In this document: in pieces, positions 11,552-32,511 of the stretch
Layout of the letters: every line of letters begins with the position of its first letter
How positions within the stretch are numbered: position 1 is the first letter of the stretch
Source: Candidatus Berkelbacteria bacterium CG06_land_8_20_14_3_00_43_10
GTDB lineage: Bacteria; Patescibacteriota; UBA1384; GWA2-35-9; CG2-30-43-20
DNA: 38,835 nucleotides
Reading direction: 5' to 3'
Assembly (NCBI GenBank): GCA_002780235.1
Contig: PEVO01000025.1
Span: 305-39,139, forward strand
The notes under the pieces: model-generated
Database searches by the model: none
What the model saw: only the letters and a program-made list of their open reading frames with translations
What the model was told of the DNA's origin: nothing
Made by a program: the position numbers and the translations under genes

Positions 11552-13089
11552 GCTCCTTCAAATATCGCGACCGCTTCGTCGACAAGGTCAGGATATTCTT
11601 GTGATTCTCGTTTTTTTACATACGACGGGTCAATAATACACTCGACGATATACGGACTCCCGGCGATTTGCGTAATTGCTGCTTCGACGAGCGGCAGATT
11701 GGTTTTGCTTGCAATTTTATTTTTATGAAACGCAAACGACACGGCGATGGTCGCTTTCCCGTCGATTGCACTCACAATATGGCTTCCTTCGAGCAGGGCG
11801 GCGAGTGACGCGTTTTTATCGCGCAGTGAGCGGATGAGTGTATGCCATGATTCATCGGAGAGCTGTGGCGTGGGTGTGCTTTGTATCGCGATGGGTATTT
11901 TTTTATCAACAGGGTCTTTCATCACGACACGGGGAGTATTTACCGTATGATCGGCGTGTGCGGTTTCTGGCGCAGGTGGCGTTATCGTATCGATCTGCGG
12001 CGTGTCATCTGCTTGGTGCGTTGCCGTTTGCTCTGCAATAAACAGTTCAAGAGGTAACCGGGGCGATGGAGATGATTTGAGTTGACCCAGTGAATGTATT
12101 AACCCGTTGATCCATGCGACAGCATGGGAAGTATCAACTAAGCGGAGCCGTTTACGTGCCTCCCCCAGCGCTTGCGCGATAAATACGCCGGGGTCTCCTC
12201 CGCTTTCAAAAAAATCATCGACAACGGCGAGTGCATCTGTGCGGTTACACTTTTCGAGCGCACCAAAAAAACGCTGGATTTCAGTGATAGATGAAAGACC
12301 GATCACCGCGCGGATGCGGTCGCTATCCACCGACTGCACGCCACTCGATACTTGGTCAAACAGCATCACTGCATCACGGAACGACCCTTCTGCAAGCGAC
12401 GCAAGGAGAGCCGCAGAGTCTGCATCGATCTTCTTTTTCTCCGTTTTCGCGATCGCCATAATATGGTCGGCGAGCATCGCTTCTGTTGCACGGATAAAAT
12501 TAAACTGTTGCACGCGCGAGAGTATGGTTGCAGGGACTTTATGAGGTTCTGTTGTCGCAAGAATGAACATGCAATGCATAGGTGGTTCTTCGAGCGTTTT
12601 TAGCAGCGCGTTAAACGCCTCTTTAGTAAGCATATGCACCTCGTCGATGATGATAACCTTTTTTGCGCACACCGATGGGGGGAACTTGATATGTTCGCGC
12701 AACCCGCGTATCTCATCGATCCCGCGGTTGCTCGCCGCATCGATCTCCAACACATCGAGTGCGTTCCCTTTGGTTATGGCGATGCAGGTGGGACAGGTGT
12801 TGCAAGGTTCGGAATCCGTATTAGGTATTAGGTATTTGGTATTAGGCGATGTATCAGAATCTTTTTTTGTGCCTACCCCCGTATACCGACTACCTACTAC
12901 CTCTTTGCAGTTGACTGCCTTAGCTAGCAACCGCGCCGTTGTCGTTTTGCCGAGCCCCGGCGGACCAGAAAACAGATACGCATGCCCAACAGTGCCCGAT
13001 GTAAGTGCATTTAAAAGCGTTGTCCGGATATGATCCTGACCGATAAGATCGCTAAATTGTTGGGGGCGGTGGGTGTGATATAAAGCCAT
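11548..13089 (-). CDS. dnaX: DNA polymerase III subunit gamma/tau
   Basis: 513 aa with GPPGLGKTT, IIDEVHML, SRVQ and Zn-module cysteines C61/C96/C99/C102. Confidence 0.9.
   Translation of the reverse strand: MALYHTHRPQQFSDLIGQDHIRTTLLNALTSGTVGHAYLFSGPPGLGKTTTARLLAKAVNCKEVVGSRYTGVGTKKDSDTSPNTKYLIPNTDSEPCNTCPTCIAITKGNALDVLEIDAASNRGIDEIRGLREHIKFPPSVCAKKVIIIDEVHMLTKEAFNALLKTLEEPPMHCMFILATTEPHKVPATILSRVQQFNFIRATEAMLADHIMAIAKTEKKKIDADSAALLASLAEGSFRDAVMLFDQVSSGVQSVDSDRIRAVIGLSSITEIQRFFGALEKCNRTDALAVVDDFFESGGDPGVFIAQALGEARKRLRLVDTSHAVAWINGLIHSLGQLKSSPSPRLPLELFIAEQTATHQADDTPQIDTITPPAPETAHADHTVNTPRVVMKDPVDKKIPIAIQSTPTPQLSDESWHTLIRSLRDKNASLAALLEGSHIVSAIDGKATIAVSFAFHKNKIASKTNLPLVEAAITQIAGSPYIVECIIDPSYVKKRESQEYPDLVDEAVAIFEGA
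12808..12903. repeat. GGTATTAGGTA / CTACCTACTACC repeat block in-frame inside dnaX
   Basis: The plus strand reads GTATTAGGTATTAGGTATTTGGTATTAGG ... CGACTACCTACTACC. The same word family forms the intergenic array at 28534-28614. Confidence 0.6.
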
Positions 13090-13304: not shown

Positions 13305-13700
13305 TTATGATGATTTCTTTGGGCGACCAAAGAGACCCTTTTTTGGTTTTTGTTCTTGATCTGCAGGTGCTGGTGGATGTGGTGAAAAATGACGTTTTTG
13401 CGACGCTCCTTTGTCTTTTTCTCCAACATACAGTTGCATGGTTGTGCGAACTTCTGGTCGTTGCTTTTTTTGTTTAACCGGTCGAGGACGAGAATCGGTT
13501 GCTCGTTTGGCTGGTTTTGTATCGGTGACGTTTGTGTCGCGCTTACGGGAATACGTTGTAAAACAATGATATATTCCGACAAGCAATACGATATCAAAGA
13601 GCCACCATATGATTGGGACAAGAAATCCCAGCACAAACGTGCTAAACACTGTTGTGACGAGAAGTATGTTGAATATCCTTGGACATATTTTCTGTTTCAC
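13305..13700 (-). CDS. small membrane protein, PLDc_N-like N-terminus with basic tail
   Basis: 131 aa with two TM helices (VPIIWWLFDIVLLVGIYH resembles the cardiolipin-synthase N-terminal motif). GTG start sits 6 nt after GGGAGG. Confidence 0.5.
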   Translation of the reverse strand: MKQKICPRIFNILLVTTVFSTFVLGFLVPIIWWLFDIVLLVGIYHCFTTYSRKRDTNVTDTKPAKRATDSRPRPVKQKKQRPEVRTTMQLYVGEKDKGASQKRHFSPHPPAPADQEQKPKKGLFGRPKKSS

Positions 13701-13703
13701 TCA

Positions 13704-14018
13704 TTACCTCCCAAGTTTGTGTGATATGTGAAGTTCGTAAAAAAAGAGGCAGGCGCATGCACCGCCGAATTCGAATCCAATCCGGACGATTTGATAGATG
13801 TCACCTGTCCGTACGTTTTGTTCAAACAAGAAATACAAAACGTACATACCGACTATTGCAGCGATGCTAGAATACGCAAATACTCCAGCCGACCGCAGGT
13901 TTTTCCATGTCGCGTAGTTTTTACGATTGTTTTTCGCTCTGCAAAAGATTACATAGAGCGAAAAGAATATCAAAAAACCAATAATGACAAAAATGCTCAT
14001 CGCTCCATATGGTATCAT
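13704..14018 (-). CDS. hypothetical membrane protein
   Basis: 104 aa with about 3 TM helices and a GGAG SD 8 nt upstream. Its stop abuts the next gene's SD, so the two look like an operon. Confidence 0.5.
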   Translation of the reverse strand: MIPYGAMSIFVIIGFLIFFSLYVIFCRAKNNRKNYATWKNLRSAGVFAYSSIAAIVGMYVLYFLFEQNVRTGDIYQIVRIGFEFGGACACLFFYELHISHKLGR

Positions 14019-14137
14019 CGCATGCTCTCCACAATCAGAATGGTCAAGGTCGCTTGTTTATTTGATCACAAAAAATATACTCCTGAACAGGTGTAATGTC
14101 AATAACAGTTTTGACTAATCGATAGATCGTGTGCAAC

Positions 14138-14578
14138 TTATATCAGAAACATACTATAAACTATAAGCGCGCCGATAATACGAACGATATAGAACACAGG
14201 AATCTGTAATTTTCCGACAGAAACCCATTGGTGCCACGGTGTGCCCTGTGCGTTAAATTTAGAAAACGGGTAGACGGGGTTGACCACAAACCACATAAAA
14301 TCCTCTACGGTCGTTCCCAAAAGGTAGGCAAAAACCAACACCCAAAACAGGTGTGTATCCCACCCGATAAGTGCAAACGGTATAGCAAGCAGAAGCGGTA
14401 TCATCACCCAGTAGAGCCAAAAATGATAAGCAGTGTAGGTGAAACTGCTCATTTTTATCTTCCATCCAACTTGGTTTTTTGCCCAGCCCTCTGGTCCTTC
14501 TATATACGCTTCCCAAAAAGCAGTCGCAACCATTGCGCCTTGTACCAAACCAAACACGATCCAATCACTTGGTGTCAT
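14138..14578 (-). CDS. hypothetical membrane protein
   Basis: 146 aa, Trp-rich, about 4 TM helices. Weak SD. Confidence 0.5.
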   Translation of the reverse strand: MTPSDWIVFGLVQGAMVATAFWEAYIEGPEGWAKNQVGWKIKMSSFTYTAYHFWLYWVMIPLLLAIPFALIGWDTHLFWVLVFAYLLGTTVEDFMWFVVNPVYPFSKFNAQGTPWHQWVSVGKLQIPVFYIVRIIGALIVYSMFLI

Positions 14579-14778: not shown

Positions 14779-15525
14779 TTATTTAATATCTTTTCCCGTC
14801 TCCCACAAAACCTCAAAGATGTTTGTAAAAACCTGTATAAGCAATTTGTCTTTTACCTCAATGAGGAGCGGTCTATCCGCGGAGTGCAGTAGAACACAAT
14901 CCGCCATCACATTAAAATTTCCTGGGTACGAATGAGGGCGTTTTATCAAACGATATTCGTTAATGGTTCTATCAAATCGTGCCAGATCTTGTTGGATATC
15001 TTCCTCGTTAAAAACGATCATTTTCCATTTTATTTTACGCCGTTTGCGGATAGCATCAATTTTTTTGGTGTAGTATGGCGTAATATGCTCGTGCCACTTT
15101 GGACCGATTGTCCCGGCGACTAAGTCTTCGCTTCCCACAGGTAAAGATTGATACTTGTTGAGCCAGTATTTTCGGTACGCTTCCACTCCTTCAAAAATGG
15201 TGATATCTGGTAGATCGCCACTGCGGATGCTTGATAGCTTCTTTGCGATCTCTGTCGCCGTATTAAGCTGGGATTGCGCCTCATCTACGAGTCGGTTGCT
15301 ATCGAGCGCCTGAAAGTGCTGGATGTTCTTTTTCTCAAGCTTAAATACGAGCGTTCGATCTATAAGCTTTTCGAGGGTTTCGTAGACGATATTTCGGTGT
15401 AAACCAGTTTTTTTGATAATGACGCCAGCTGGGGACTGCCCGTTTTCGACAAGAGCGGTGTAGGTAATCGCCTCATTTTTTGAAAGATGTAGTTGCTCAA
15501 GTTGTGAGATAATATCATTTTTCAT
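14779..15525 (-). CDS. TrmB-family transcriptional regulator (module 1)
   Basis: 248 aa. The N-terminal wHTH (LSKNEAITYTALVENGQSPAGVIIKKTGLHRNIVYETLEKLIDRTLV) is typical of TrmB. Paralogous to 17024..17794 and 20277..21026. Confidence 0.75.
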   Translation of the reverse strand: MKNDIISQLEQLHLSKNEAITYTALVENGQSPAGVIIKKTGLHRNIVYETLEKLIDRTLVFKLEKKNIQHFQALDSNRLVDEAQSQLNTATEIAKKLSSIRSGDLPDITIFEGVEAYRKYWLNKYQSLPVGSEDLVAGTIGPKWHEHITPYYTKKIDAIRKRRKIKWKMIVFNEEDIQQDLARFDRTINEYRLIKRPHSYPGNFNVMADCVLLHSADRPLLIEVKDKLLIQVFTNIFEVLWETGKDIK

Positions 15526-15533
15526 ACAATAAT

Positions 15534-15608
15534 ACTATATCAAAATAACCAGTAAAAGTCAATATGTCATCATAAAGTATTGACAAACATATACTTTTGT
15601 GCTATACT
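15534..15608. promoter_or_regulatory. back-to-back divergent promoters (module 1)
   Basis: Plus strand: TTGACA 15580-85, 17-nt spacer, TGcTATACT 15603-08. Minus strand: TTGACT (15562-57), 17-nt spacer, TATAGT (15539-34), then 8 nt to ATG 15525. Confidence 0.55.
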
Positions 15609-15658
15609 ATGTTGTTACGATCGAATTGGGTAACCAATGAGATACGAACGAACCAGAA

Positions 15659-15729
15659 CAATTTGAGCCCTTAGGAAACTTCAATCCCATTTTCCATGGA
15701 GAAGCAACAAGAGGGTTTGGAGAAAAGAT
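15659..15729 (+). promoter_or_regulatory. conserved SD-sequestering leader helix (copy 1)
   Basis: CAATTTGAGCCCT-N40-AGGGTTTGGAGAAAAGAT-ATG. The 5' arm can pair with AGGGTTTGGA, which includes GGA of the SD. Confidence 0.45.
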
Positions 15730-16182
15730 ATGAATGCATGTCAATTTAGACCTTGGGAAGCACCACTGTACATAGACCCTCCACAATGGTTTATGGTGGC
15801 AGCAACGGTTGTGTCATTAATCAGCATTTATTGGCTGATAGGATACCTATTTGGTCCGCTGTGTATGAGTTTCTACACAGCAGGGAAACAAGATGCTGCA
15901 ACGAAATTCTTTGAGAGGTTGAAGCCTTGGGTCTGGGTTGCATTTTGGCCCATACCGGTTGGTTTCATCCTTGTAATGATCGCCTTCGTGGTCGGAATGA
16001 TGTGCTTTGTGATTATGGGGATCATCAACAACATCGGTGAGATTGCGCTAATCATCGCTGGGTTAGCCGGTTTCGCAATCATCGCCGTTCTCGCTTGTGG
16101 CTTATGGGGGGTGTTAATCAATCCAAAATACTTCCCAAGGTTCAAAAGATGGACAAGAAGAATATTTTTGAATCCCGAATAG
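15730..16182 (+). CDS. small membrane protein smp1 (variable cargo, module 1)
   Basis: 150 aa with about 4 TM helices and a basic C-terminus. GGAG SD lies inside the conserved leader. Confidence 0.65.
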   Translation: MNACQFRPWEAPLYIDPPQWFMVAATVVSLISIYWLIGYLFGPLCMSFYTAGKQDAATKFFERLKPWVWVAFWPIPVGFILVMIAFVVGMMCFVIMGIINNIGEIALIIAGLAGFAIIAVLACGLWGVLINPKYFPRFKRWTRRIFLNPE

Positions 16183-16212
16183 TCGCTCTACGCACACTGT
16201 ATTAACAGAGCA

Positions 16213-16250
16213 AGCTCTGCGCCTTTATGGTGCGGAGCTTTTCTTTTGCC
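16213..16250 (+). terminator. intrinsic terminator (module 1)
   Basis: AGCTCTGCGCC-TTTAT-GGTGCGGAGC followed by TTTTCTTTTGCC. Confidence 0.6.
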
Positions 16251-16257
16251 AACGATT

Positions 16258-16689
16258 CTAGATCTGTTTGAGTATCATTTCCGGTGTGACCACCTGGAAG
16301 TGGAACGGGCTATCTTTCATCAAATCACCAAAATCTTTTTGGTCCAAAGTCACAAAGCAGTCAATGGGTAGCTTAAAGCAGATAGCGAGTATAGCAATAT
16401 CCTTTTTAACAACGAATTGAGTAGCGCGCTTGAGATCTTCAGGTTTTGGACTGGGGACTAGTTCAAAGGTATTCTTTTTAATTAGACCTTGGAAAACCTC
16501 ATGTAATTGATTATTGCCTTTTTGCAAAATATTTCTGGAAACCTCTGTGATGATGTCAGAAGAAGTATACGCCTTAACAAGACCGAGTTCTGCGGCATAT
16601 AATAAACTTCCCGATCCGCCCTCTGTGTTAAAAAGACCTGCAAGGATAACGCTTGAATCGAGTACGACTTTCAGCTTATTTGTGACCAT
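16258..16689 (-). CDS. vapC: PIN-domain toxin (VapC-like), module 1
   Basis: 143 aa starting VVLDSSVILAGL. Overlaps the upstream AbrB-like gene by 14 nt. Paralog of 22019..22453. Confidence 0.8.
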   Translation of the reverse strand: MVTNKLKVVLDSSVILAGLFNTEGGSGSLLYAAELGLVKAYTSSDIITEVSRNILQKGNNQLHEVFQGLIKKNTFELVPSPKPEDLKRATQFVVKKDIAILAICFKLPIDCFVTLDQKDFGDLMKDSPFHFQVVTPEMILKQI

Positions 16690-16927
16690 ACTTTTCGTCG
16701 TACATTTCTTGTCTTATTACATCCAAATCCGCAAGCATCTCATCAATGGGGTAGGGTTTGTTTTTGGTAATGTTTTGAGCTTCTTTGACTAATGATTTAT
16801 ATTTCGACAACACAAAACTATTACCAACCTGCGACAAGCTGATCTTACTTCCTTTGCGTAAATTTAAACTCTTCCGCACCGTTGACGGTAATGTAATCTG
16901 CCCCCGGTCTCGCATTTGTATATTCAT
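16676..16927 (-). CDS. vapB: AbrB/SpoVT-type antitoxin (VapB-like), module 1
   Basis: 83 aa with the swapped-hairpin motif RGQITLPSTVRKSLNLRKGSKISL. Confidence 0.75.
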   Translation of the reverse strand: MNIQMRDRGQITLPSTVRKSLNLRKGSKISLSQVGNSFVLSKYKSLVKEAQNITKNKPYPIDEMLADLDVIRQEMYDEKYGHK

Positions 16928-16946
16928 ATTATTATACCTTATAATC

Positions 16947-16975
16947 AGAATAAATCAGAAAATTCTATTTGTCAA
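16947..16975 (-). promoter_or_regulatory. vapBC-1 promoter
   Basis: On the minus strand: TTGACA (16975-70), 17-nt spacer, TATTCT (16952-47). TTCTGAT direct repeats overlap it. Confidence 0.4.
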
Positions 16976-17059
16976 CCCAATCTATCTTTTGATCGCATCC
17001 GGTTAGTGTAATTAGTAATTAGGTCAATTAGAAATTTCTCCCCCTGCTCCTTTCCACGC
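16968..17059. repeat. 92-nt duplicated segment (copy 1 of 2)
   Basis: Nearly identical to 19311..19401 (a few substitutions, 1 indel). Spans the 3' end of trmB-2 (..AWKGAGGEISN*) plus the downstream vapB -35 region. Confidence 0.85.
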
Positions 17060-17794
17060 ACTCCGAAACCCACATCGTTCTAGTTCGGCTATAGCGTGGG
17101 ATTCGACCACAACCATACTTGAGTTATTTTCGTCAATAGTCAACGAACAAACTTGATCGCGCCAGATCCATTTTTCAGCGTTGGTATTCCAGCCATTTTC
17201 AATAAAGCGATGGTCTCGTTTTTCTGAACCAATTGAGCTTTGATATTTTCTAGCATCAGGAGTATCGGGCAATAATATTGTTGATTTTATTTCATTGTCG
17301 TCAGAAAATTTTAAGAATTTATCGTAGAATTCTTTGTCCAAATCATACCAGTGGTTTTTATTTCCGGAAGACCAGATCAAAAGTTCCTCACCTTTCTTGG
17401 CGGTTTGCATAAATATTCGATACCATTCTCGCATACTGATTAGATTTTCGTAGATAGTGATGGTTGGAATTGATATCAGATCCGCCCGTTTGCTTTGCAA
17501 CTCGGGCAAGACCTTTTTCAACTCTCTGGTATTTGATCGGGCAATGTCAACTAGAATATTCGGATCGACAGCATGGAACAAACGATGAGTACCGATTTTT
17601 ACCTGTTTGATTAGACCTTTTTCAATTAGGATTGGCAAGAGAGTGTAGACCATCTGTCTAGTAACGCCGATTTTGCGCCCGATCAAAATCGCTGAAGCGG
17701 GACCGATCAGCAGGCAGGTTAAATATAATTTTGCTTCGGTTGTGCCGTAGCCGAGCTGTGTAAATAATTTAATATAGCGTTCTTGGCTTTTCAT
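17024..17794 (-). CDS. TrmB-family transcriptional regulator (module 2)
   Basis: wHTH TEAKLYLTCLLIGPASAILIGRKIGVTRQMVYTLLPILIEKGLI. The ATG at 17794 is preferred over the in-frame TTG at 17803. Confidence 0.75.
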   Translation of the reverse strand: MKSQERYIKLFTQLGYGTTEAKLYLTCLLIGPASAILIGRKIGVTRQMVYTLLPILIEKGLIKQVKIGTHRLFHAVDPNILVDIARSNTRELKKVLPELQSKRADLISIPTITIYENLISMREWYRIFMQTAKKGEELLIWSSGNKNHWYDLDKEFYDKFLKFSDDNEIKSTILLPDTPDARKYQSSIGSEKRDHRFIENGWNTNAEKWIWRDQVCSLTIDENNSSMVVVESHAIAELERCGFRSAWKGAGGEISN

Positions 17795-17829
17795 ATGTGA
17801 CAAATAATCATTTTACATTATATATGGGT

Positions 17830-17907
17830 ATCATATCAAATATAGAGTATAAAGTCAACAATAGAGACAAGCAAACACTTGACAAACATATACTTTTGTG
17901 CTATACT
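17830..17907. promoter_or_regulatory. back-to-back divergent promoters (module 2)
   Basis: Plus strand: TTGACA 17879-84, 17-nt spacer, TGcTATACT 17902-07, identical over ~30 nt to module 1. Minus strand: TTGACT (17858-53), 17-nt spacer, TATGAT (17835-30). Confidence 0.55.
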
Positions 17908-18038
17908 ACGGTTGTTATTGAAGATTGAAAATCGAAAATCCGCCGTAGCATCTTGAATGAAACATGGATGAATAATCCAAGTGAAATATCAAGAGCGAAG
18001 GAGGACGATCGAAATTCAACTGAAGATAACGCAGATTG

Positions 18039-18099
18039 ACAATTTGAACCCTCGGAAACTTTACCAAATGGAAAGCAACAAAAGGGTTTGGAGAAAGAA
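18039..18099 (+). promoter_or_regulatory. conserved SD-sequestering leader helix (copy 2)
   Basis: CAATTTGAACCCT-N31-AGGGTTTGGAGAAAGAA-ATG. Confidence 0.45.
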
Positions 18100-18543
18100 A
18101 TGATTACAATTATTGTGCTTTGGGGCGTAGTTATACTGCTGACAGCGTTAACAATAACGCTGTCAGGCCAGGAAAATATTCTTGCGCTGGGAATAGTCGT
18201 ATTCCCCCTAATAGGGTGGGCGATAACGAACGACCAGGTAACCCCCCAGCCGGAATATGGGGATAATTTTGAGACTACAAGAAATGTTTCCACCGTTAGG
18301 TGGGACGACATACCGAAAGGTATGTATAAGAAGCTAGGTAAGTTCTACTTGAACTTACCGTCCGGAAAGGCAAAAGTCGTCCGAAAGTTAGACGACTTCG
18401 TGACGGTCAAGGTTGTAGTTTCCCCTCGTGGAGAGAAAAAACTAGCGACGGTTCAAACCGCCAAAAACGAAACGGGCTCGTGGTGGGTCTGGGACCCCTC
18501 GAAAGAGGGGTATAGGGAAGGGCATCTGGAACCTGAAAAATAA
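18100..18543 (+). CDS. small membrane protein smp2 (variable cargo, module 2)
   Basis: 147 aa from ATG 18100, with GGAG 6 nt upstream. Two N-terminal TM helices plus a ~95-aa soluble domain. No similarity to smp1 or smp3. Confidence 0.6.
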   Translation: MITIIVLWGVVILLTALTITLSGQENILALGIVVFPLIGWAITNDQVTPQPEYGDNFETTRNVSTVRWDDIPKGMYKKLGKFYLNLPSGKAKVVRKLDDFVTVKVVVSPRGEKKLATVQTAKNETGSWWVWDPSKEGYREGHLEPEK

Positions 18544-18563
18544 CCTGCGGTTTTGTACCGCAC

Positions 18564-18604
18564 CCCCGCTTGAGTGCAAACTTGAGCGGGGTTTTTCTTT
18601 TGCC
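18564..18604 (+). terminator. intrinsic terminator (module 2)
   Basis: CCCCGCTTGAG-TGCAAA-CTTGAGCGGGG followed by TTTTTCTTTTGCC. A small hairpin TGCGGT-TTTGT-ACCGCA precedes it. Confidence 0.65.
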
Positions 18605-19027
18605 TTATTTTCTTGCCTTCAGTTTTGCGTAGAGTTTGATAAGTTTACTGTCAGACGAAGCAAAGTCGGCGCATTTGTTGTCTATCGCCTCGAGAATAAT
18701 GAGGCAGTCTACTAAACTTACTTGAGGTGTCTCTTTGTAAAGCAAGATCGCGTTTAATATGCGGTTTTTATCTGGCACTTCACAACAGGGTAGCTCCAAA
18801 ATTGCGGATATTCTATCGATGATTATCGCTTTTTCTATTTTGTAATAACTTTTCAGCGTCCACGCGAATTCAAAAATAACGAGTATGGGGATATAGAGAT
18901 TATACATACCGCTCGCAGATTGCGTTATTAACCGTTCCGCTTGATCGTATTTTTCTCGGTGTAGAAAGAAATCGAGGAGAATATTTATATCGATTGCGAT
19001 GGTTTTCATATCGTCACTCGTTGGCAA
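18605..19027 (-). CDS. vapC: PIN-domain toxin (VapC-like), module 2
   Basis: 140 aa with IAIDINILLDFF and VDCLIILEA. A different PIN subfamily from modules 1 and 3. The start may be the ATG at 19009. Confidence 0.75.
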   Translation of the reverse strand: MPTSDDMKTIAIDINILLDFFLHREKYDQAERLITQSASGMYNLYIPILVIFEFAWTLKSYYKIEKAIIIDRISAILELPCCEVPDKNRILNAILLYKETPQVSLVDCLIILEAIDNKCADFASSDSKLIKLYAKLKARK

Positions 19028-19271
19028 TTTCTATTGCCCTTAGTTCGAACGCTTTTTCGATAGCAATATCTGTCTGTGTGCCATCATCGTACTGTTTAAG
19101 AGAGCCGGCAAGATCGAGTATTCTCGGTCTAGTCTTTGGTCGGGCGGTAAACCCATTTTGTGAATAGATTATTTGAAATTTAGTACCTTTTTGTACCGCC
19201 AACCGATCCCGAATTGGTTTTGGGATGGTAAATTGCCCCTTAGAGGTGAGAGTGGTTGTATATGTTTTCAT
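19014..19271 (-). CDS. vapB: AbrB/MazE-type antitoxin (VapB-like), module 2
   Basis: 85 aa with SKGQFTIPKPIRDRLAVQKGTKF. Upstream: TTGACA, 17-nt spacer, TATTGT, and an AAGGA SD. Confidence 0.7.
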   Translation of the reverse strand: MKTYTTTLTSKGQFTIPKPIRDRLAVQKGTKFQIIYSQNGFTARPKTRPRILDLAGSLKQYDDGTQTDIAIEKAFELRAIEIANE

Positions 19272-19310
19272 TGCATTCCTTACATATATACAATAAATCC
19301 TTACTTATAC

Positions 19311-19401
19311 TTTGTCAACCCAATCTATCTTTTGATCGCATCCGGTTAGTGTATTAGTGATTAGGTCAATTAGAAATTTCTCCCCCTGCTCCTTTCCACG
19401 C
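19311..19401. repeat. 92-nt duplicated segment (copy 2 of 2)
   Basis: Near-identical to 16968..17059. Confidence 0.85.
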
Positions 19402-19541
19402 CAGTTCGAAGATAGAACGCTGTCCATTAGCGATGCTCTCGGACTCTATTACAACTGCCACCAGCTCATCTTCGAGCGAAATAATTGCTACTTTATTGCG
19501 ATAGATATTGATCTCGTTGGTAAATGGGTAGATTTTGGGTC
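19366..19541 (-). pseudogene. 3' remnant of a TrmB-family regulator
   Basis: Encodes ..KIYPFTNEINIYRNKVAIISLEDELVAVVIESESIANGQRSIFELAWKGAGGEISN*, which matches the last ~55 residues of trmB-3. The wHTH, promoter and start are missing. Confidence 0.75.
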
Positions 19542-19620
19542 TGGGACCAAAAAAAGGGAGATTATCGAACCGGCCATTGCCGGTAGATGACCCCCACCCA
19601 ACCCGCGGCTTATGCCACAA

Positions 19621-19656
19621 CCCCGCTTGAGTGCGAACTTGAGCGGGGTTTTTTAT
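19621..19656 (+). terminator. orphan copy of the module terminator
   Basis: CCCCGCTTGAG-TGCGAA-CTTGAGCGGGG followed by TTTTTT, with no intact upstream gene. Confidence 0.55.
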
Positions 19657-19698
19657 TTATCGTAAAAACTGTTCGAGAATATATGTTACAATGAATCT

Positions 19699-20229
19699 AT
19701 GGGATTAAAACAAAAGATAAATAATTATGCCTACATAGATAGCCAAAACCTTAATTTAGGAGTACAGAGTTTAGGCTGGAAACTGGATTTCAAAAAGTTT
19801 TGAGTATATTTAACGGAAAAATATCAGGTAAAAATCGCATATCTTTTTATCGGTTATCTTGCTGAAAACCAGGATCTGTATAGTTCGCTTTAAAAAAGCG
19901 GTTATATATTAAAATTTAAACCAGTTTTGCCCGCCAAAGATGGTCAACACAAAGGGAATGTTGATGCTGATATGGTCTTGCAGATTGCCATAGACCACTT
20001 CGAACACCATTTTGATAAAGCGGTAGTTGTCACGAGCGATGGAGATTTTTATTCGGTTGTTAAGTTTTTGTATGGAAAAAAGAAATTAGAAAAAGTAATC
20101 AGTCCTTACTATAAAACATGTTCTTCTCTACTAAAAAGAACAGCCAAAGACAAACTGGTATTTATTAATAATATAAAGAATAAATTAGAATATAAAAAAG
20201 AAAAACACCGCACAAGGACGAAACCTTAA
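19699..20229 (+). pseudogene. NYN/LabA-like domain gene with two in-frame stops
   Basis: One frame reads MGLKQKINNYAYIDSQNLNLGVQSLGWKLDFKKF*VYLTEKYQVKIAYLFIGYLAENQDLYSSL*KSGY..GNVDADMV..VVTSDGDF. TGA lies at 19801-03 and TAA at 19891-93. Confidence 0.7.
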
Positions 20230-20276
20230 GAGGTGTTTTTCACTATAGATTCTGACTAAATTATATCAAAACAATA

Positions 20277-21026
20277 CTATTTGTCAACCCCCGCCCCTTT
20301 CCATGCCAACTCGAAGATGGCGCGGAGGGTTTTGGCGACGGACTCGGATTCGATGATAACCGACAACAGTTCTCCTTGGAGCGACATTATTGCCACTTTA
20401 TTTTCATAAATATCTATTTCATTGGTAAACGGGTATAGTTTTGGGTCAACTAAACGAGTTTCGCGGAGTTGTTCTTGGTCGTGCTTAACGAATTCTCGGT
20501 TAATATCTAAATCGGGCCCAATCGCTTTGACGGTAATGCCTTTCTTGATTCTCCTTCTCAAGTAGGAATTGATGAAAGATTGATCCTGCGAGTAATACCC
20601 CTGCGCAGTTGCAAACGCCAGAATGGTGCCATTTTGGGGTTGTTTTAAGGTGTCCTCGAGGGCAATCTGGATTCCTGATGCTCCCTCGAAAAATTGGACT
20701 CTCGGTTTATCACCAATAGTTTTAACCAGGGCTTTAATTTCTGGGATAACTGATTCTAACCGGTTGATCTTTTCCTCCTGTAATGCCTTGAACTTATCGA
20801 TCGAGATAGAACTGTAGTGGAGGGTTCCGCGGATCTCGACTTCGGAGAGTAAGCCATTTTCAACCATATTTTTAACCAGATCGTAGATAAACGTTCTCTG
20901 AACTCCCGATTCTCGGGCGATATCACTGACTGTTGCTTGACCTAATTTAAGACAAGCAAGGTAGATTTGTGCTTCCTGTGACTTGATACCAAATTGTGAG
21001 AGAATTGTTAAATAATTGTTTTCCAT
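20277..21026 (-). CDS. TrmB-family transcriptional regulator (module 3)
   Basis: 249 aa with wHTH SQEAQIYLACLKLGQATVSDIARESGVQRTFIYDLVKNMVENGLL. Confidence 0.8.
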   Translation of the reverse strand: MENNYLTILSQFGIKSQEAQIYLACLKLGQATVSDIARESGVQRTFIYDLVKNMVENGLLSEVEIRGTLHYSSISIDKFKALQEEKINRLESVIPEIKALVKTIGDKPRVQFFEGASGIQIALEDTLKQPQNGTILAFATAQGYYSQDQSFINSYLRRRIKKGITVKAIGPDLDINREFVKHDQEQLRETRLVDPKLYPFTNEIDIYENKVAIMSLQGELLSVIIESESVAKTLRAIFELAWKGAGVDK

Positions 21027-21033
21027 AGCTTAT

Positions 21034-21120
21034 ATTGTATCAAAAAAATGACAAAAAGTCAATAGCAAGTAGGAAAAAGCGTATCAAACACTTGACAAAA
21101 GTATATTTTTATGCTATAAT
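21034..21120. promoter_or_regulatory. back-to-back divergent promoters (module 3)
   Basis: Plus strand: TTGACA 21092-97, 17-nt spacer, TGcTATAAT 21115-20. Minus strand: TTGACT (21062-57), 17-nt spacer, TACAAT (21039-34), then 7 nt to ATG 21026. Confidence 0.55.
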
Positions 21121-21171
21121 ATACTCATCAAACTGGAAATTTGAAAGAATTGAAAGGGAGACGCAAGTTGA

Positions 21172-21239
21172 CAATTTGAACCCTCATGACACCGTAACCT
21201 GAAATATGGGCGGATTACAGAGAGGGTTTGGAGAATGTA
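21172..21239 (+). promoter_or_regulatory. conserved SD-sequestering leader helix (copy 3)
   Basis: CAATTTGAACCCT-N38-AGGGTTTGGAGAATGTA-ATG. Confidence 0.45.
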
Positions 21240-21572
21240 ATGGAAGATGTAAGTTACGTTGCGATGTATGTATTAATAAGCGGGCTATTCGGATTGTTTT
21301 TCTGGCAATCCGAATCGAAAATTTCCTCATACTGGGGGAAAAATATCGCCAGCCGAGAGTTCCCACCCTTCTGGTATTGGGTGGTGTGGTGCACGGTAAT
21401 GCCTGTTTGCATCGCGATGTGCACCGTATGGTGCATCGGAAGAGTAGCGTGCTGCGTCGCAAAATTTTCGGAAAAAATAGTTAGATTATTGATGGTGCCC
21501 ATTCGGGCGAGTGACTGGGTAAGCCAGCCGGAATGGATAAGATACCAGTTGTGGCTTCGAAGTCGACGCTAA
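21240..21572 (+). CDS. small membrane protein smp3 (variable cargo, module 3)
   Basis: 110 aa from ATG 21240, with GGAG 6 nt upstream. Cys/Trp-rich, 2-3 TM helices, basic amphipathic C-terminus. Confidence 0.55.
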   Translation: MEDVSYVAMYVLISGLFGLFFWQSESKISSYWGKNIASREFPPFWYWVVWCTVMPVCIAMCTVWCIGRVACCVAKFSEKIVRLLMVPIRASDWVSQPEWIRYQLWLRSRR

Positions 21573-21592
21573 CTTGCGACTTATGTCGCGCT

Positions 21593-21636
21593 CCCGCTTG
21601 GTACAGAAATGTATTGAGCGGGGTTTTTCTTTTGCC
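21593..21636 (+). terminator. intrinsic terminator (module 3)
   Basis: CCCGCTTGG-N15-TTGAGCGGG followed by GTTTTTCTTTTGCC. The small hairpin GCGAC-TTAT-GTCGC precedes it. Confidence 0.6.
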
Positions 21637-21682
21637 CAAAATTAGTAACCTCTTAGGTTGCAAAAAATGGTAATGAGGACAA

Positions 21683-21716
21683 CCCCCGTGTCTTTATAGT
21701 GCGGGGGTTTTCTTTT
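21683..21716 (+). terminator. second, orphan module-type terminator
   Basis: CCCCCGTG-TCTTTATA-GTGCGGGGG followed by TTTTCTTTTG. It resembles the module-1 terminator loop and tail, and no ORF lies between it and the previous terminator. Confidence 0.45.
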
Positions 21717-21748
21717 GTTTTGACCCCGCCACAACATATATTCTGGTC

Positions 21749-21777
21749 TTGACAATAATCAGAAAATCGGATATTCT
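21749..21777 (+). promoter_or_regulatory. vapBC-3 promoter
   Basis: TTGACA 21749-54, 17-nt spacer, TATTCT 21772-77. AATCAGAAA repeats and a TCAGAA/TTCTGA inverted repeat overlap it. Confidence 0.45.
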
Positions 21778-21798
21778 GAAAATCAGAAAGGAACTATA

Positions 21799-22032
21799 AT
21801 GGCACAATCTACTTCAATGCGTATATGGGATAAAGGGCAGATAACAATACCGACTCGTTTCCGTAAAGATCTTAATCTGGATGAGGGCACGGTTGTATAC
21901 ATAGAACAATTTGGTGATGCTCTTTTGCTCCGCCCTAAAGAGTCATCTATTATGGCGATCCAAAAACGCGGAGAAGAGCTGATGCGCGCAAAGGGAATAA
22001 CTGTTGAAGATTTAATCGATGAAGAAAACTAA
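21799..22032 (+). CDS. vapB: AbrB/SpoVT-type antitoxin (VapB-like), module 3
   Basis: 77 aa with KGQITIPTRFRKDLNLDEGTVVYI and an AAGGA SD. Confidence 0.75.
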   Translation: MAQSTSMRIWDKGQITIPTRFRKDLNLDEGTVVYIEQFGDALLLRPKESSIMAIQKRGEELMRAKGITVEDLIDEEN

Positions 22033-22453
22033 CGTATTTCTTGACAGTAGTGTCTTACTGGCAGGATTGGTGTCGACAACTGGCGCGTCTGCGGAGATTC
22101 TGCGCCTTGCCGAAATAGGTGTCGTTGAGCTTATGGTCTGCGATCTTGTTATTGATGAGGTGAAGCGCAACCTGACCAAAAAATTACCCGAGTTTTTGCC
22201 TTATTTTTACACCGCGCTCGAAGTTCTTAAACCGAGAATTACGCAAAACCAAGAAACGGTAGATACAGTTCTCACACGTTTAATTCCAAAAAAGTCAGAT
22301 CAAATTATTATTCAAACCGCACTCATATCAAAACCGGACTATTTTATCACGCTTGATAAAAAACATTTACTTAAACCGGTCGTCCGCACAGCCGTTGCGA
22401 TGCCAGTTATTACTCCAAGTGAGTTTTTGGGAATAATTAGATTTAAAAACTAA
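22019..22453 (+). CDS. vapC: PIN-domain toxin (VapC-like), module 3
   Basis: 144 aa starting [12 protein letters not shown]. Overlaps vapB by 14 nt. Paralog of 16258..16689. Confidence 0.8.
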
Positions 22454-24197
22454 CTAAACCCACCGGCTTGGATCTGCCAGAGTTTTTGGTAGGTGCCTTT
22501 GTGGAGTTTTAATAACATCTCGTGCGTTCCTTCTTCTACGATTGTGCCTTTTTCTAGAACGACAATTCTATCCATCTGTTTGATGGTCGATAAACGGTGG
22601 GCGATGACGATGACGGTCTTGTCTTTAATAAGCGTTTTAAGCGCATCTTGGATGTAACGTTCCGATTGGCTGTCGAGTTGGCTGGTCGCCTCATCAAGAA
22701 TAAGAATCGGTGCATTTTTAAGGATAGCCCGGGCGATCGCCACCCGTTGGCGATCGCCACCAGAAAGCTTGATCCCCCGTTCGCCGACTAACGTATCATA
22801 CCCTTGTGGTAGGTTTTTAATAAACTCGTGGGCATGGGCGAGCGTGGCAGCTTTTTTTACTTCGTCATCGGTGGCGTTTTGTTTGGCATAACGGATATTT
22901 TACATAATACTGCGGTGAAAGAGCAACGCTTCTTGCGGGACGTAGGCGATGGCGCCACGCACACTATCTTGTGTGACCGTTGCAATATTCTGATTATCTA
23001 TGGTAATCTGCCCGCCGTGGACATCAAAAAACGCAACAACAATTTGACAAGCGTCGTTTTGCCCGACCCGGAACTGCCGATCAGTGCCAACCGTTCTTTG
23101 CTCGCAATTTTCAGATTAAATTGTTTGAATATTTTATCGGCATGATATCCAAAAGTCACATCGTTAAATGTTACCGCACCGTTTGATAGTGTAATACTTT
23201 TGGCGTTTGGTGCATCTTGAACTTCATACGGCGTCGTCAGAATATCGGTCATTTCGTTGGCGCTCCCCAAACTATCATAGATACTGCGCATATTGGAAGA
23301 AACGTTCCTTAACCGTTCAAACAACTGCATAATCAAACCTTGGATAAGGGCAAAATCACCGATGGTCAGTGTGCCTTGCCTCCAGAGTACAACGGCGAGC
23401 GCCATCATCCCTACCTCGAGTACCATGGTGAAAAAGTTGACATACGATTCTATGTCGCGGTCAAATAACCATGCTTTGAGTTGGAATCCATATTGTGTCG
23501 AAATCTTTTTCTGATAGAGGGCTTCCTCTGTTGTATATCCGTTAAATATTTTGAGGTTGAGGTTGTTGGCAGTCGTGTCGGCAAGGTGTGCACCGGCGAT
23601 GCTATCGGCGGCGGACTTCTGCAGATCAATTTTCTGACGTTTTTTTGCTGTCGAAAAAGAAAATATCAGATAGATAACGGTCCAGAGTACAAGCGCACCA
23701 ACTAGAGTTAGGTTTCGCAGGCCAAGCGCGATGATAATGAACACGTATCGGATGATACTTTCGGCGATACGCCACGTTGCTTGGTTGGAAAGATCTTCGT
23801 ACGCCCTGATAAATCAGTCGACTTTTTTGGTCAGTGCTCCGCTAAAATTATTCGTAAAAAAGGTATAGGAGTGTTTGTGCAGGTAAGAAAAACAATACGA
23901 AGCAAGGTCTGACATTGTTTTTGTTTGGAATATAATGTTACTCGTCATCGCAGCCCGAGACGTAACCCAGATAATTGCATTGACACCAGCAAAAATGGTT
24001 AGGGTTCGATAAATGATTGGGAGGGTTGTGAAGTCGTTGGCGGCTAGACTGTCGAAGATGTTTTTGTATAAAAATGGGATATACACATACAGTGCGTTGA
24101 CGATGAGAGTAGAAATAATCGATACAAAAACAAGCAGGCGATATTTTTTTGTAAACCGCCAATAAATCGAAATCGTTTGTTTCGATAGATTTTTCAT
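22450..24197 (-). pseudogene. ABC exporter (fused TMD-NBD, MsbA-like), disrupted three times
   Basis: The TMD spans 24197-23817 and continues in the same frame after an in-frame TGA at 23816-14. Walker A is GSSGSGKTT. A frameshift falls at the A6/T6 run 23026-31, and an in-frame TAA at 22902-00 reads SIM*NIRY. The [14 protein letters not shown] signature and ILILDEATS Walker B follow. Confidence 0.8.
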
Positions 24198-24425: not shown

Positions 24426-25100
24426 ATGATAAAAGACATTGCAGAAAAGTTATCTCGAGAATTGCGCATTAGTTTGGATAAAGTTGTCAGGGAAGAATGG
24501 GAAATGAAAGTTCTGGAAAAAATATCCCAGAGCGTAATTGGTGATAAGATAATGTTTAAGGGTGGAACCGCCTTGCGTTTAGCCTATAACTCCCCTCGAT
24601 TTTCTGATGATCTAGATTTTTCTCCACTTTCTAAAATTGCATTCGCTGACTACAAAACGGTTATTAAAAGCATCGAAAAGGCGTTTCCCGAAATTGTTAT
24701 CTCCGATATATACAACAAGTACTATACCTATTTATCTGAATATAAAATTACGGATCCGCTTTTGTCTCAAAACATTACTCTGAAAATTGAACTCTCCAAA
24801 AGAAAAAGCCAATACAAATCGTCCTTGCGTTTAATTAGCTCCCCATCATCAAACTTGCAACCATTATTTCAGGTCGAAGAAATCGATGAAATTTTGAAGG
24901 ACAAACTAAAAACAATACAAGAGCGCAAACTGCCTCGCGATTTGTTTGATATTTGGTTTTTGTGCCAAAAACTTCGTTTACCGATGCCAGATATTACCTT
25001 GAAGATCGATAAAAAATTGATTCGGCAGGAACTTTCTAAATATTTGCCCAAAAACTATCAAACGGTTACCACGCAACTTATGGAGAAGTATGGCAAATAA
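24426..25100 (+). CDS. abiEii: AbiEii/AbiGii-family nucleotidyltransferase toxin
   Basis: 224 aa with MFKGGTALRLAYNSPRFSDDLDFS and RDLFDIWFL motifs. GGAG SD. Confidence 0.8.
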   Translation: MIKDIAEKLSRELRISLDKVVREEWEMKVLEKISQSVIGDKIMFKGGTALRLAYNSPRFSDDLDFSPLSKIAFADYKTVIKSIEKAFPEIVISDIYNKYYTYLSEYKITDPLLSQNITLKIELSKRKSQYKSSLRLISSPSSNLQPLFQVEEIDEILKDKLKTIQERKLPRDLFDIWFLCQKLRLPMPDITLKIDKKLIRQELSKYLPKNYQTVTTQLMEKYGK

Positions 25101-25674
25101 CAGATTAAAAGTCCTTGGTACTCTTGATAAAGATTACTTTTCATCGTCTGATTTGCAAAAGATTTTTAAATTACCACGCGCAAGTTTACTAGTGACTTTA
25201 TCGCGTCTGCAAAAACGAGGAGAAATAAAGCGGATTATTAAAGGATATTATCAAGTAGCCGATAAACCAATTAATACTCAAAAGATAGCGACACAGATAT
25301 ATCAACCGAGTTATATTTCTTTTGAAAGCGCGCTGTCGCGCTACGGGGGGATAAGCCAAGTACCTTATTGTTTGACGCTGGCAACCACCAATAAACCAAA
25401 AAAAATAGTTCTCGACAAGGAAGATATTGAGTACCGCAAAATTAAGCAGGATTTACTCTTTGGATTTAACCTTATCGACGGCGTGTATGTGGCGACAGCG
25501 GAAAAAGCTCTGCTCGATACATTGTATATGGTGTCAAAAGGGAGATTGCAAATTGACTTGACCGTTATTGACAAAAAAGTATTTGACAAAATAAAGTTGT
25601 TACTCTGGTCCAAACAGTATCCACCAGCGGTTTTGCGTCTTATTAATAGTTTATATCAAGAACGAACCGATTAA
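25090..25674 (+). CDS. abiEi: AbiEi-family antitoxin / transcriptional regulator
   Basis: 194 aa with an N-terminal wHTH (FSSSDLQKIF..LVTLSRLQKRGEIKRIIKGYY) and PSYISFESALSRYGGISQVP, typical of AbiEi. Overlaps abiEii by 11 nt. Confidence 0.75.
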   Translation: MANNRLKVLGTLDKDYFSSSDLQKIFKLPRASLLVTLSRLQKRGEIKRIIKGYYQVADKPINTQKIATQIYQPSYISFESALSRYGGISQVPYCLTLATTNKPKKIVLDKEDIEYRKIKQDLLFGFNLIDGVYVATAEKALLDTLYMVSKGRLQIDLTVIDKKVFDKIKLLLWSKQYPPAVLRLINSLYQERTD

Positions 25675-28076: not shown

Positions 28077-28511
28077 TTATATGGCTAGCTCGTACACTGG
28101 GCTATTGGTCGGATTGTAATCATTGGCCAAATCTTTATCGTTGCTAAGCTCAAGTGTCGCAGAGACAATGCATTTTGCATTTTCTGTTGAATATAAATAT
28201 GGCTTTTTAGTGAGGGGGTCGGAATATGTCTTTGTCTTTTCTGCCGTAGCCAGATCTTCTAGAGATAGAGGACATTTACCGTTCTCAACTTTGTAAATAT
28301 TAATTGAATTGATCAGTGCTTTAACGGTGGCTTTACGAGCGTTATCTCGTGACTCGATTTTGCTAACGGCATTTTGTTTACGGGAAGATTTTAATAATTT
28401 ATTGGGGTAAATTACAAGTTTGTAGGTGAAATACGATACTAAAATCAAAGGTGCTACAATTAATACTGTATTGACGATTGTTAGTAATCTAAAAGTATTA
28501 TTATTTTGCAT
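28077..28511 (-). CDS. membrane-anchored hypothetical protein, pseudopilin-like fold suspected
   Basis: 144 aa with an N-terminal hydrophobic helix, then RDNARKATVKALINSINIYKVENGKCPLSLEDL, which resembles GspG/pilin helices. There is no canonical G/FTLIE prepilin site and no SD. Confidence 0.4.
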   Translation of the reverse strand: MQNNNTFRLLTIVNTVLIVAPLILVSYFTYKLVIYPNKLLKSSRKQNAVSKIESRDNARKATVKALINSINIYKVENGKCPLSLEDLATAEKTKTYSDPLTKKPYLYSTENAKCIVSATLELSNDKDLANDYNPTNSPVYELAI

Positions 28512-28533: not shown

Positions 28534-28614
28534 TCCCATACTACCTAATCCCATACTACCTAATACCTACTACCTAATACCTACTACCTAATACCTAATA
28601 CCTACTACCTAATA
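28534..28614. repeat. TACCTAATACC / CTACTACC tandem repeat array
   Basis: Reads CCCATACTACCTAAT x2, then (ACCTACTACCTAAT/ACCTAAT)n. Located between rpsO and the pilin-like gene. Confidence 0.8.
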
Positions 28615-32482: not shown

Positions 32483-32511
32483 ATTCCACGATATCTTTCC
32501 TGACCACGCAA

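Follow-up and report, generated by a model that had tools for sequence, protein, structure and literature searches.

Divergent TrmB-type regulator modules with a candidate structured leader RNA and mostly ORFan cargo in a Berkelbacteria genome

The stretch of DNA analysed (38,835 nt of contig PEVO01000025.1; referred to below as the 38.8-kb window) belongs to a Candidatus Berkelbacteria bacterium, a groundwater member of the Candidate Phyla Radiation (CPR). Its region 14779-22453 includes three minus-strand open reading frames (ORFs) for TrmB-type regulators, each of which is divergent from a small plus-strand ORF (smp1, smp2 and smp3, hereafter the cargo). The original prediction, made from the sequence alone, described the region as an array in which a TrmB regulator, back-to-back promoters, a leader, an unrelated small ORF, a terminator and a VapBC pair follow one another three times, and this array is real. 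The same divergent arrangement was found in related loci, where the regulator, the two promoters and the leader are retained and the cargo is replaced.

The regulator genes trmB1 (14779-15525), trmB2 (17024-17794) and trmB3 (20277-21026), all on the minus strand, encode TrmBL2-like proteins of 248, 256 and 249 aa that belong to clades C, A and B, respectively. Their mutual identity is 19-29%. The PF01978 winged helix-turn-helix (wHTH) domain was detected in all three at 40.3, 36.0 and 52.4 bits (E values of 2.8e-10, 7e-9 and 4.9e-14), above the gathering cut-off of 25.6 bits, which bears out the assignment of these minus-strand products of ~250 aa to wHTH regulators of the TrmB type. PADLOC models for CasR, Csa3 and CARF proteins match the regulators only in the wHTH part. 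The start of trmB2 is most likely the ATG at 17794. The predicted -10 elements of trmB1 and trmB3 end 7-8 nt before the ATG (8 nt for trmB1); hence the mRNAs of these two genes are probably leaderless.

TrmBL2 is a 264-aa protein without the sugar-binding part found in other members of the family (PMC4158304). The window regulators gave no Pfam match beyond the wHTH, and thus none to the sugar-binding effector domain PF11495 that is present in TrmB and TrmBL1. Together with a length of 248-259 aa, this indicates a TrmBL2-like architecture and not that of a sugar-sensing TrmB. An AlphaFold (AF2) model of TrmB2 had a predicted local distance difference test (pLDDT) score of 89.4. Foldseek matched it to TrmBL2 over the full length (E = 3e-12, 267 columns) and to TrmB (E = 1e-9), and the C-terminal domain of the model resembles proteins with a phospholipase D (PLD) fold. 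The TM-scores against the TrmBL2 and TrmB matches were only 0.36-0.39 because the orientation of the domains differs. As judged by this model, the regulators fold like TrmBL2, with a wHTH, a long coiled-coil helix and a PLD-like domain.

Tyr50 in the recognition helix of Pyrococcus TrmB and TrmBL2 is important for DNA recognition (PMC4158304). In the family studied here, alignments of 23 and of 19 sequences both show an invariant recognition-helix tyrosine (Y53 of TrmB2), and the recognition helices themselves differ between clades A, B and C (TRQMVY, QRTFIY and HRNIVY, respectively). No description of TrmB-type regulators in CPR bacteria, Patescibacteria or Saccharibacteria was found in the searchable literature.

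The promoter core of module 1 lies at 15534-15608 and consists of P_trmB1 (TTGACT-17-TATAGT, minus strand, 15562-15534) and P_smp1 (TTGACA-17-TATACT, plus strand, 15580-15608). That of module 2, at 17830-17907, consists of P_trmB2 (TTGACT-17-TATGAT, minus strand) and P_smp2 (TTGACA-17-TATACT, plus strand, 17879-17907), and that of module 3, at 21034-21120, of P_trmB3 (TTGACT-17-TACAAT, minus strand) and P_smp3 (TTGACA-17-TATAAT, plus strand, 21092-21120). All six predicted promoters were thus located where they had been placed originally, each with a 17-nt spacer, and all six have a TG extended -10 element. A 37-nt promoter block is 86-89% conserved among the three modules. In the window, this block and the Shine-Dalgarno (SD) block AGAGGGTTTGGAGAA are confined to the three modules, for chance expectations of 0.00 and 0.07, respectively. 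Within the window, the leader and terminator segments are therefore not generic intergenic repeats, but the promoter hexamers with the extended -10 element, taken alone, are generic.

A degenerate promoter pattern, TTGACAAANNTATANTTTTNTGCTATANT, matched 15 stretches of unrelated genomes (L007-L021, all genome contigs) from Clostridia, Bacilli and other Patescibacteria, and the SD block was present in none of the 15. The chance expectation for such matches in genome contigs was estimated by us at about 0.02 for uniform sequence. The recurrence of TTGACAAANNTATANTTTTNTGCTATANT suggests a spacer composition that is widely favoured in strong promoters. As a probe for the family, the pattern was rejected as too unspecific, since it found generic strong promoters in unrelated phyla.

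The palindrome ATGTGAC-N10-TTTACAT at 17795-17818 abuts the start of trmB2 and is a candidate autoregulatory operator. In 20 loci, including window module 2, a palindrome of the form TGTAAA-N7-9-TTTACA is found no more than 40 nt upstream of the regulator start; it is considered a candidate operator through which the regulators would control their own genes. In L028, L029, L032, L035 and L036, the regulator ORF itself carries a second, looser TGTAAA-N-TTTACA-like palindrome within its first 21 nt, starting from base 2 of the start codon; this may represent a tandem operator.

Leader 1 opens with a 5'-terminal hairpin predicted by folding (15612-15651, plus strand), in which GUU-A-CG-AUC pairs with GAU-A-CG-AAC and encloses an apical AUUGG-GUAA-CCAAU stem-loop. 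Its 5' arm, TTGTTACGATC, has this one exact copy in the window and occurs in identical form, equally far from the -10 element, in the related loci L026b and L039. A second predicted helix, formed by UUUGAGCCCUU and GAGGGUUUGGA (15662-15721, plus strand), involves the SD sequence GGAG at 15719-15722. In leader 2 (17914-18099, 186 nt, plus strand), the anti-SD/SD helix is formed by 18043-18052 and 18083-18092. A possible variant of the 5' hairpin in this leader, GUU-AUUGAAGAU paired with AUCUUGAAU-GA-AAC, is weak, being paired by hand and absent from the minimum free energy (MFE) fold. Leader 3 (21127-21239, plus strand) has its anti-SD/SD helix at 21175-21185 and 21222-21232; the 5' hairpin of the family is not evident there by folding.

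The SD-pairing helix that had been proposed for the leaders is present in the MFE folds of all three, but it pairs only the GGA of GGAG and includes several G.U pairs. Its local z-scores in leaders 1 to 3 are modest (-0.9, -1.7 and -2.5, respectively), as compared with -3.0 for the whole of leader 1. Covariation gave no evidence for this helix because its arms are nearly identical between the modules.

The cargo of module 1, smp1 (15730-16182, plus strand), is predicted to encode a 150-aa ORFan membrane protein with three transmembrane (TM) segments, not about four as first estimated. smp2 (18100-18543, plus strand, start ATG at 18100) is a 147-aa ORFan with two N-terminal TM helices, as expected, and a soluble part of ~100 aa. 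smp3 (21240-21572, plus strand, start ATG at 21240) is a Cys/Trp-rich ORF of 110 aa with two predicted TM segments. The three are unrelated to each other, as had been proposed, since all pairwise E values exceeded 1, and none was assigned to a family by searches of Pfam, NCBIfam, PADLOC and PDB sequences. Among 5.8e9 clusters, smp1 retrieved only its own 99% cluster and smp2 only its own cluster, and an exhaustive HMMER scan of 1.84e9 representatives with smp2 returned the query itself, one weak TM match and nothing else. These searches mark smp1 and smp2 as ORFans. The pLDDT of a single-sequence AlphaFold model of smp2 was 48.6, and the model was not used.

The codon scores of the annotated frames, +0.07 for smp1 (the best frame) and +0.16 for smp2, lend weak support to their coding status. 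For smp3 the score was zero or negative both in the 110-aa frame and in an overlapping 92-aa frame that starts inside the leader. Public gene calls for this part of module 3 (21206-21572) give the 110-aa TM frame on 6 contigs and the 92-aa frame on 24. The SD spacing of smp3 is 6 nt, the same as in modules 1 and 2. The coding status of smp3 is nevertheless doubtful.

Intrinsic terminators were detected on the plus strand 3' of the cargo at 16212-16250 in module 1 and at 18564-18601 in module 2, and two in tandem at 21592-21717 in module 3. They are GC-rich stems followed by T-tracts and share the tail TTTTCTTTTGCC, as noted originally; the expectation of one hairpin per module does not hold for module 3. 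A 40-nt hairpin, CAACCACCCAGATTCGG...CCGAATGGGTGGTTTT, occurs elsewhere in the window at 31076-31115 and 32509-32548 in two copies that are 93% identical and flank an ORF without Pfam match (31334-32482). Duplicated terminator-like hairpins are thus not unique to the TrmB modules.

The terminators are followed by vapC1 (PIN_3) and vapB1 (AbrB/MazE) at 16258-16927 (minus strand), by vapC2 (PIN) and vapB2 (AbrB/MazE) at 18605-19271 (minus strand), and by vapB3 and vapC3 at 21799-22453, which are on the plus strand and hence inverted relative to pairs 1 and 2. All three are genuine pairs of AbrB/MazE and PIN genes, as judged by matches to PF04014 and to PF13470 or PF01850, and the two genes of a pair overlap by 14 nt. 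The claim that they form part of the module was not upheld. No VapB or VapC homolog was found in 28 related loci (tblastn, E<=1e-4) or among the Pfam-annotated genes of L022-L026; therefore, VapBC is an incidental neighbour and not a component of the module.

The three complete modules originally described were confirmed, and a decayed fourth, at 19311-19660, had been overlooked. This remnant consists of a boundary repeat, the end of a clade B regulator (last 57 codons of TrmB4, 19366-19620, minus strand) and, fused to it, a terminator copy (19610-19658). The boundary repeat at 19311-19401 is a duplicate of the 92-nt segment 16968-17059, which comprises the vapB upstream region and the 3' end of trmB2; the copies (91-92 nt) are 97-98% identical overall and 100% identical over a 43-nt stretch. 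Such similarity clearly points to a recent recombination between module boundaries. In the sister strain L002, an intact clade B TrmB4 of 258 aa, 47% identical to TrmB3, occupies the position of the remnant. Structural variation at strain level is also evident between positions 1-1100 of L002 and 19272-20276 of the window, and the upstream region of L002 is unrelated to the window. Beside the remnant, an ORF of 100 aa (19927-20229) matches only the C-terminal half of the NYN domain, with a weak PADLOC match to HEC-09/NYN, and looks like a gene fragment.

A homolog search with TrmB2 gave 19 homologs, down to 26% identity. In L024, L025 and L026, TrmB homologs are divergent from small ORFs without Pfam match, often in arrays of two or three, and a metagenome scan revealed 23 further loci with the same divergent arrangement. 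The combination of a regulator, divergent promoters, a leader and variable cargo thus recurs in ~30 modules of related loci, often in arrays, with at least two regulators in 6 of 10 loci of at least 5.5 kb. Across these modules the cargo promoter is nearly always TTGACA-17-TAnAAT with TG, and a terminator hairpin follows 8 of the 16 complete cargo ORFs.

Regulators that are 70-87% identical to each other are accompanied by cargo without BLASTP similarity. Such loci are homologous at the nucleotide level from the start of the regulator across both promoters and the leader, up to the SD or start codon of the cargo; the alignment of L036 and L040, for example, covers 3-169, and the ORF begins at 175. 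Comparison of the related loci by tblastx likewise showed homology mostly confined to the regulator, the intergenic region and the leader. In L038 and L039, whose regulators are 87% identical, the distal flank beyond the cargo is 89% identical, and between these conserved boundaries there is a methyltransferase in one locus and a TM protein in the other. The notion of a conserved expression platform carrying exchangeable cargo, put forward in the original prediction, is thereby supported. TM segments were predicted in 15 of 25 cargo ORFs, in addition to which one ORF is lipoprotein-like and one is a truncated TM-like ORF. Other cargo in the relatives includes methyltransferases, a radical-SAM gene, a Fur-ZnuA operon and an operon of sugar-nucleotide type.

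The regulators of window modules 1-4 (W_m1 to W_m4) fall into three clades together with those of other genomes. Clade A includes W_m2, L024a, L025a, L026a, L022, L028, L036 and L045; clade B includes W_m3, W_m4, L024b, L026b and L025b; and clade C includes W_m1 and L025c, the closest relative of TrmB1 (46% identity). The existence of three orthologous clades indicates that the composition of the array predates the divergence of these organisms. A recent tandem duplication as the origin of the three modules was considered and rejected, since the paralogs are less close to one another than to their orthologs in other genomes.

The cargo promoters of the window are 0.74-0.89 identical to each other, versus 0.34-0.60 in other arrays and a mean of 0.58 between genomes. 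The promoter spacers of modules 1 and 2 are identical at 17 of 17 positions, which is above the between-genome 95th percentile. The SD block, the anti-SD block and the terminator tail of the window are absent from 246 kb of related loci and are thus genome-specific, not recombination sites of the whole family. The intergenic region of module 1 has no similarity to that of its ortholog L025c. Given the age of the clades, the near identity of the promoter, SD-helix and terminator segments in the window reflects local homogenisation and not ancestral identity. Either gene conversion or a selective constraint common to the modules would explain it best, gene conversion being the putative process favoured here.

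In most modules, GTT(C)ACGAT begins 3-5 nt past the -10 element; its pairing partner further downstream is ATCG(G)AAC, and the apical hairpin enclosed by the two is variable. In the related loci the arm TGTTCACGATG occurs once per locus and is confined to the cargo leader. In a derived arms-only alignment of 10 loci, with the arms picked from MFE folds, 91% of the cells pair, changes on both sides are seen in 5 of the 7 pairs, and the covariation score was not reached by any of 500 shuffles. A leader covariance model, R1, built from 7 leaders, gave ~66 bits for the sense strand versus ~22 bits for the antisense strand. R1 retrieved its seeds and L031 only, and it reached no window leader because it is too sequence-specific. 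Rfam 15 gave 0 gathering-level matches in the window, and no leader match at E<=1 in 11 related loci. The leader hairpin is therefore a candidate for a structured leader RNA outside Rfam.

The modules sit inside a low-GC island at ~13.3-25.7 kb of the window, between core replication genes (dnaX, dnaB, a 5'-3' exonuclease gene and holA) on one side and pnp on the other. Public records list the pnp product, polynucleotide phosphorylase, as PIU87258.1 and TrmB1 as PIU87240.1. The other content of the island is three further small TM ORFs, a fragmented ABC transporter, the NYN fragment and AbiEii/AbiEi. The small membrane ORFs (146, 104 and 131 aa, no Pfam match) are located 3' of trmB1 at 13305-14578 (minus strand), and a near-consensus promoter, TTGACA-17-TATATT, lies within the group at 14102-14074. 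In L022, a weak homolog of the 146-aa ORF (26% over 137 aa) lies a few kb away from the TrmB module. The ABC transporter (ABC_membrane and ABC_tran) at 22450-24197 (minus strand) is broken into three consecutive ORFs of 97, 248 and 127 aa and is probably a pseudogene at the island edge. It is immediately followed by the AbiEii/AbiEi type IV toxin-antitoxin pair at 24426-25674.

Repeats of two kinds were observed elsewhere in the window. A 14-nt tandem repeat, CCTACTACCTAATA, is present in ~4 copies at 28552-28610, between ORF 28077-28511 and rpsO, and a related 31-nt stretch lies inside dnaX (12872-12902). AT-rich repeats of the form AGAGTTTAGAAYTT occur at 8014-8087, 37092-37151 and 37425-37484. 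Two copies of this type fall within a TsaD-like ORF (36550-38052), the Pfam match of which is split into three stretches, and this suggests insertions in that gene.

The preferred interpretation, held with roughly even confidence, is that the locus is an ancient array of repressor-gated, high-output modules for lineage-specific, mostly envelope proteins of Berkelbacteria and related CPR bacteria. Each autonomous module would consist of a dimeric TrmBL2-like DNA-binding protein, two compactly arranged divergent promoters, of which the one for the cargo is near consensus and of the extended -10 type, a 5' leader on the cargo mRNA that opens with a stem-loop, a strong SD and lineage-specific cargo, usually a small membrane or secreted protein. 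The regulator would bind operators in its own promoter or 5' region, the candidate in clade A being ATGTAAA-N8-TTTACAT; this binding would repress its own gene and gate the intrinsically very strong cargo promoter. A signal sensed via the C-terminal domain would lift the repression. The 5'-terminal hairpin may shield the cargo mRNA from decay that depends on the 5' end, and the genome does encode RNase J (777-2756 in the window). In the Berkelbacteria genome of the window, the anti-SD helix would additionally damp translation. Over evolutionary time the cargo would be swapped while the regulator, the promoters and the leader are kept, and in the window genome gene conversion between paralogous modules would homogenise short regulatory segments. 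The VapBC pairs would be unrelated neighbours in a variable island.

A further-reaching proposal, tentative and rather doubtful, is that the conserved regulator, divergent promoters and structured leader serve in CPR bacteria as an expression dock, a dedicated platform for gene recruitment or gene birth behind which new or captured genes, mostly for ORFan envelope proteins, would be placed time and again and so come under tight control that is already in place, and that the GUU(C)ACGAU hairpin represents a new class of cis-regulatory RNA with a trans-acting factor. Speculatively, this factor could be the PLD-like domain of the regulator itself. The sole basis for this idea is that TrmBL2 reportedly binds single-stranded nucleic acid.

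Several observations weigh against the interpretation as repressor-gated modules for envelope proteins. A convincing family hairpin is absent from window modules 2 and 3. The stability of the hairpin relative to shuffled sequences is weak (mean z-score of -0.5), and its covariation was counted on arms that had been chosen by folding. Core genes have stronger codon signatures than smp1 and smp2, and smp3 may be non-coding. A test of the dN/dS type on strain contigs L001-L006, at least 99.85% identical to the window, had no power to detect purifying selection. Some cargo is soluble or forms an operon, so that the term envelope protein applies to most cargo but not to all.

The leader element is also open to a reading as DNA, in which the regulator or RNA polymerase would bind GTTCACGATG together with its inverted partner, either as half-sites of an operator or as an element of the initial transcribed sequence. 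The element is located directly at the predicted transcription start site, and operators of the TrmB family are inverted repeats (TGM site). Moreover, its 5' arm is more conserved than its 3' arm and the arms pair in three registers, for which reason the element may act also, or instead, as DNA; this too counts against the RNA interpretation. The spacing of the arms, however, varies from ~6 to ~60 nt, and the intervening sequence forms unrelated hairpins of its own. The sense strand folds more stably than the antisense strand in 20 of 25 modules, owing to G.U pairs. The motif also spans clades A, B and C despite their different recognition helices, which argues against a clade-specific operator. 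A role solely as a DNA element is thus regarded as unlikely.

According to a second alternative, the array belongs to a defence or abortive-infection island, in which the regulator silences a toxic small membrane effector (holin-like or Abi-like) until phage infection, and VapBC, AbiE and NYN are parts of the same equipment. This would account for the setting of the modules in a variable, low-GC island that also holds three VapBC pairs, AbiEii/AbiEi and an NYN fragment, for very strong promoters paired with a putative repressor, and for hypervariable, mostly membrane-embedded cargo, as an arms race would predict. However, the match of the regulators to PADLOC models is confined to the generic wHTH and no smp product is matched at all. 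VapBC is absent from the 28 related loci, and among the cargo elsewhere are methyltransferases, a radical-SAM gene, and the Fur-ZnuA and sugar-nucleotide operons. Phage and viral contigs searched with the regulator contained no relatives, and a plasmid search returned only distant HTH proteins from Azospirillum and Niallia plasmids. The defence hypothesis of the original prediction was therefore not supported, and its probability is considered low.

It might also be argued that nothing is modular at the locus, the regulators being ordinary local transcription factors beside fast-evolving hypothetical genes and the shared DNA being generic promoters, SDs and terminators. Divergent regulator-target pairs are indeed commonplace in bacteria, the degenerate promoter pattern does match unrelated promoters in Clostridia, Bacilli and other groups, and similar duplicated terminators are found elsewhere in the window, such as those at 31076 and 32509. 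Generic elements would not be expected to account for the same divergent layout in ~30 modules over three ancient regulator clades, for a specific leader motif that is confined to cargo leaders and shows compensatory changes, or for a spacer identity between modules 1 and 2 (17/17) above the between-genome 95th percentile; hence this reading is considered distinctly improbable.

The weakest alternative, a cassette-exchange locus in which the leader and terminator act as integron-like sites for the swapping of promoterless ORF cassettes by a site-specific recombinase, would suit the sharp cargo boundary at the start codon, the differing cargo between the conserved flanks of L038 and L039, the 3' cargo hairpins conserved within the window genome and the recent recombination marked by the boundary repeat, but is highly improbable, since no recombinase, integrase or transposase domain was found in any scanned ORF of the window, the SD block and terminator tail do not occur in 246 kb of related loci, a terminator hairpin follows only half of the complete cargo ORFs, searches with smp1 and smp2 gave no homologs that would indicate a shared cassette pool among the sequences sampled, and the strain contigs compared do not differ in their cargo.

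CPR bacteria are largely uncultured and, to our knowledge, almost nothing is known about their gene regulation. The modules define a recurrent regulatory unit with a bacterial TrmBL2-like family, candidate operators and a candidate structured leader outside Rfam. This unit would control small ORFan membrane proteins, which make up the most lineage-specific part of the genome and are probably exposed to the host or the environment. The unit provides a concrete case in which regulatory DNA is kept while the coding cargo turns over and in which regulatory segments appear to be homogenised between ancient paralogous modules. Both features bear on how new genes are recruited and brought under control in reduced symbiont genomes. 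Future genetic tools for CPR bacteria could also draw on the promoter, leader and terminator parts.

Like integron cassette arrays, the locus comprises tandem small, unrelated, often ORFan genes among toxin-antitoxin pairs, with hairpin-forming sequences at their 3' ends. Unlike in integrons, the units of the window each come with a promoter and a regulator of their own, none of the scanned window ORFs encodes an IntI integrase, the 3' hairpins are canonical terminators with a GC stem and T-tract, and no shared cassette pool was found.

With TrmB and TrmBL2 of Thermococcales (PDB 5bpi, 5box, 5bpd and 3qph), the regulators share the PF01978 wHTH and the recognition-helix tyrosine. With TrmBL2 they further share a long dimerisation helix, as predicted from the model, a PLD-like C-terminal domain, a length of ~250-260 aa and the lack of a sugar-binding subdomain. 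The sequence identity to the Thermococcales proteins is only 14-18%, and the window regulators are bacterial. Whereas TrmBL2 of Thermococcales is one abundant, genome-wide chromatin protein, several divergent paralogs are found here, each with its own divergent promoter, and the candidate operators of the family (TGTAAA-N8-TTTACA) are specific conserved palindromes.

Stabilisers at the 5' end and SD-sequestering leaders are well known, among them the ompA 5' hairpin, the Bacillus 5' stabilisers and the ROSE and fourU thermometers. The leaders described here resemble them in the position of the hairpin at the extreme 5' end of the predicted transcript and in a second helix that pairs part of the SD, but have no sequence or Rfam relationship to those known. 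The sequence of the basal stem, GUU(C)ACGAU, is kept from genome to genome, a constraint not expected of a pure stabiliser. In contrast to SD-sequestering leaders, the SD helix of the window is genome-specific and only partial.

A close parallel in layout is found in divergent repressor/target pairs such as TetR-TetA and the MarR-type divergons, which likewise have back-to-back promoters in a short intergenic region, a regulator beside its presumed target and a palindrome at the promoter of the regulator that suggests autoregulation. Here, the target is not conserved; the regulator, promoters and leader persist and the cargo is replaced, mostly by ORFans. The present modules further differ in forming ancient multi-paralog arrays and in a cargo mRNA with a conserved, putatively structured leader. 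They are thus a real and recurrent variation on the theme of the divergent local regulator, distinguished by a candidate new leader RNA and by ORFan cargo.

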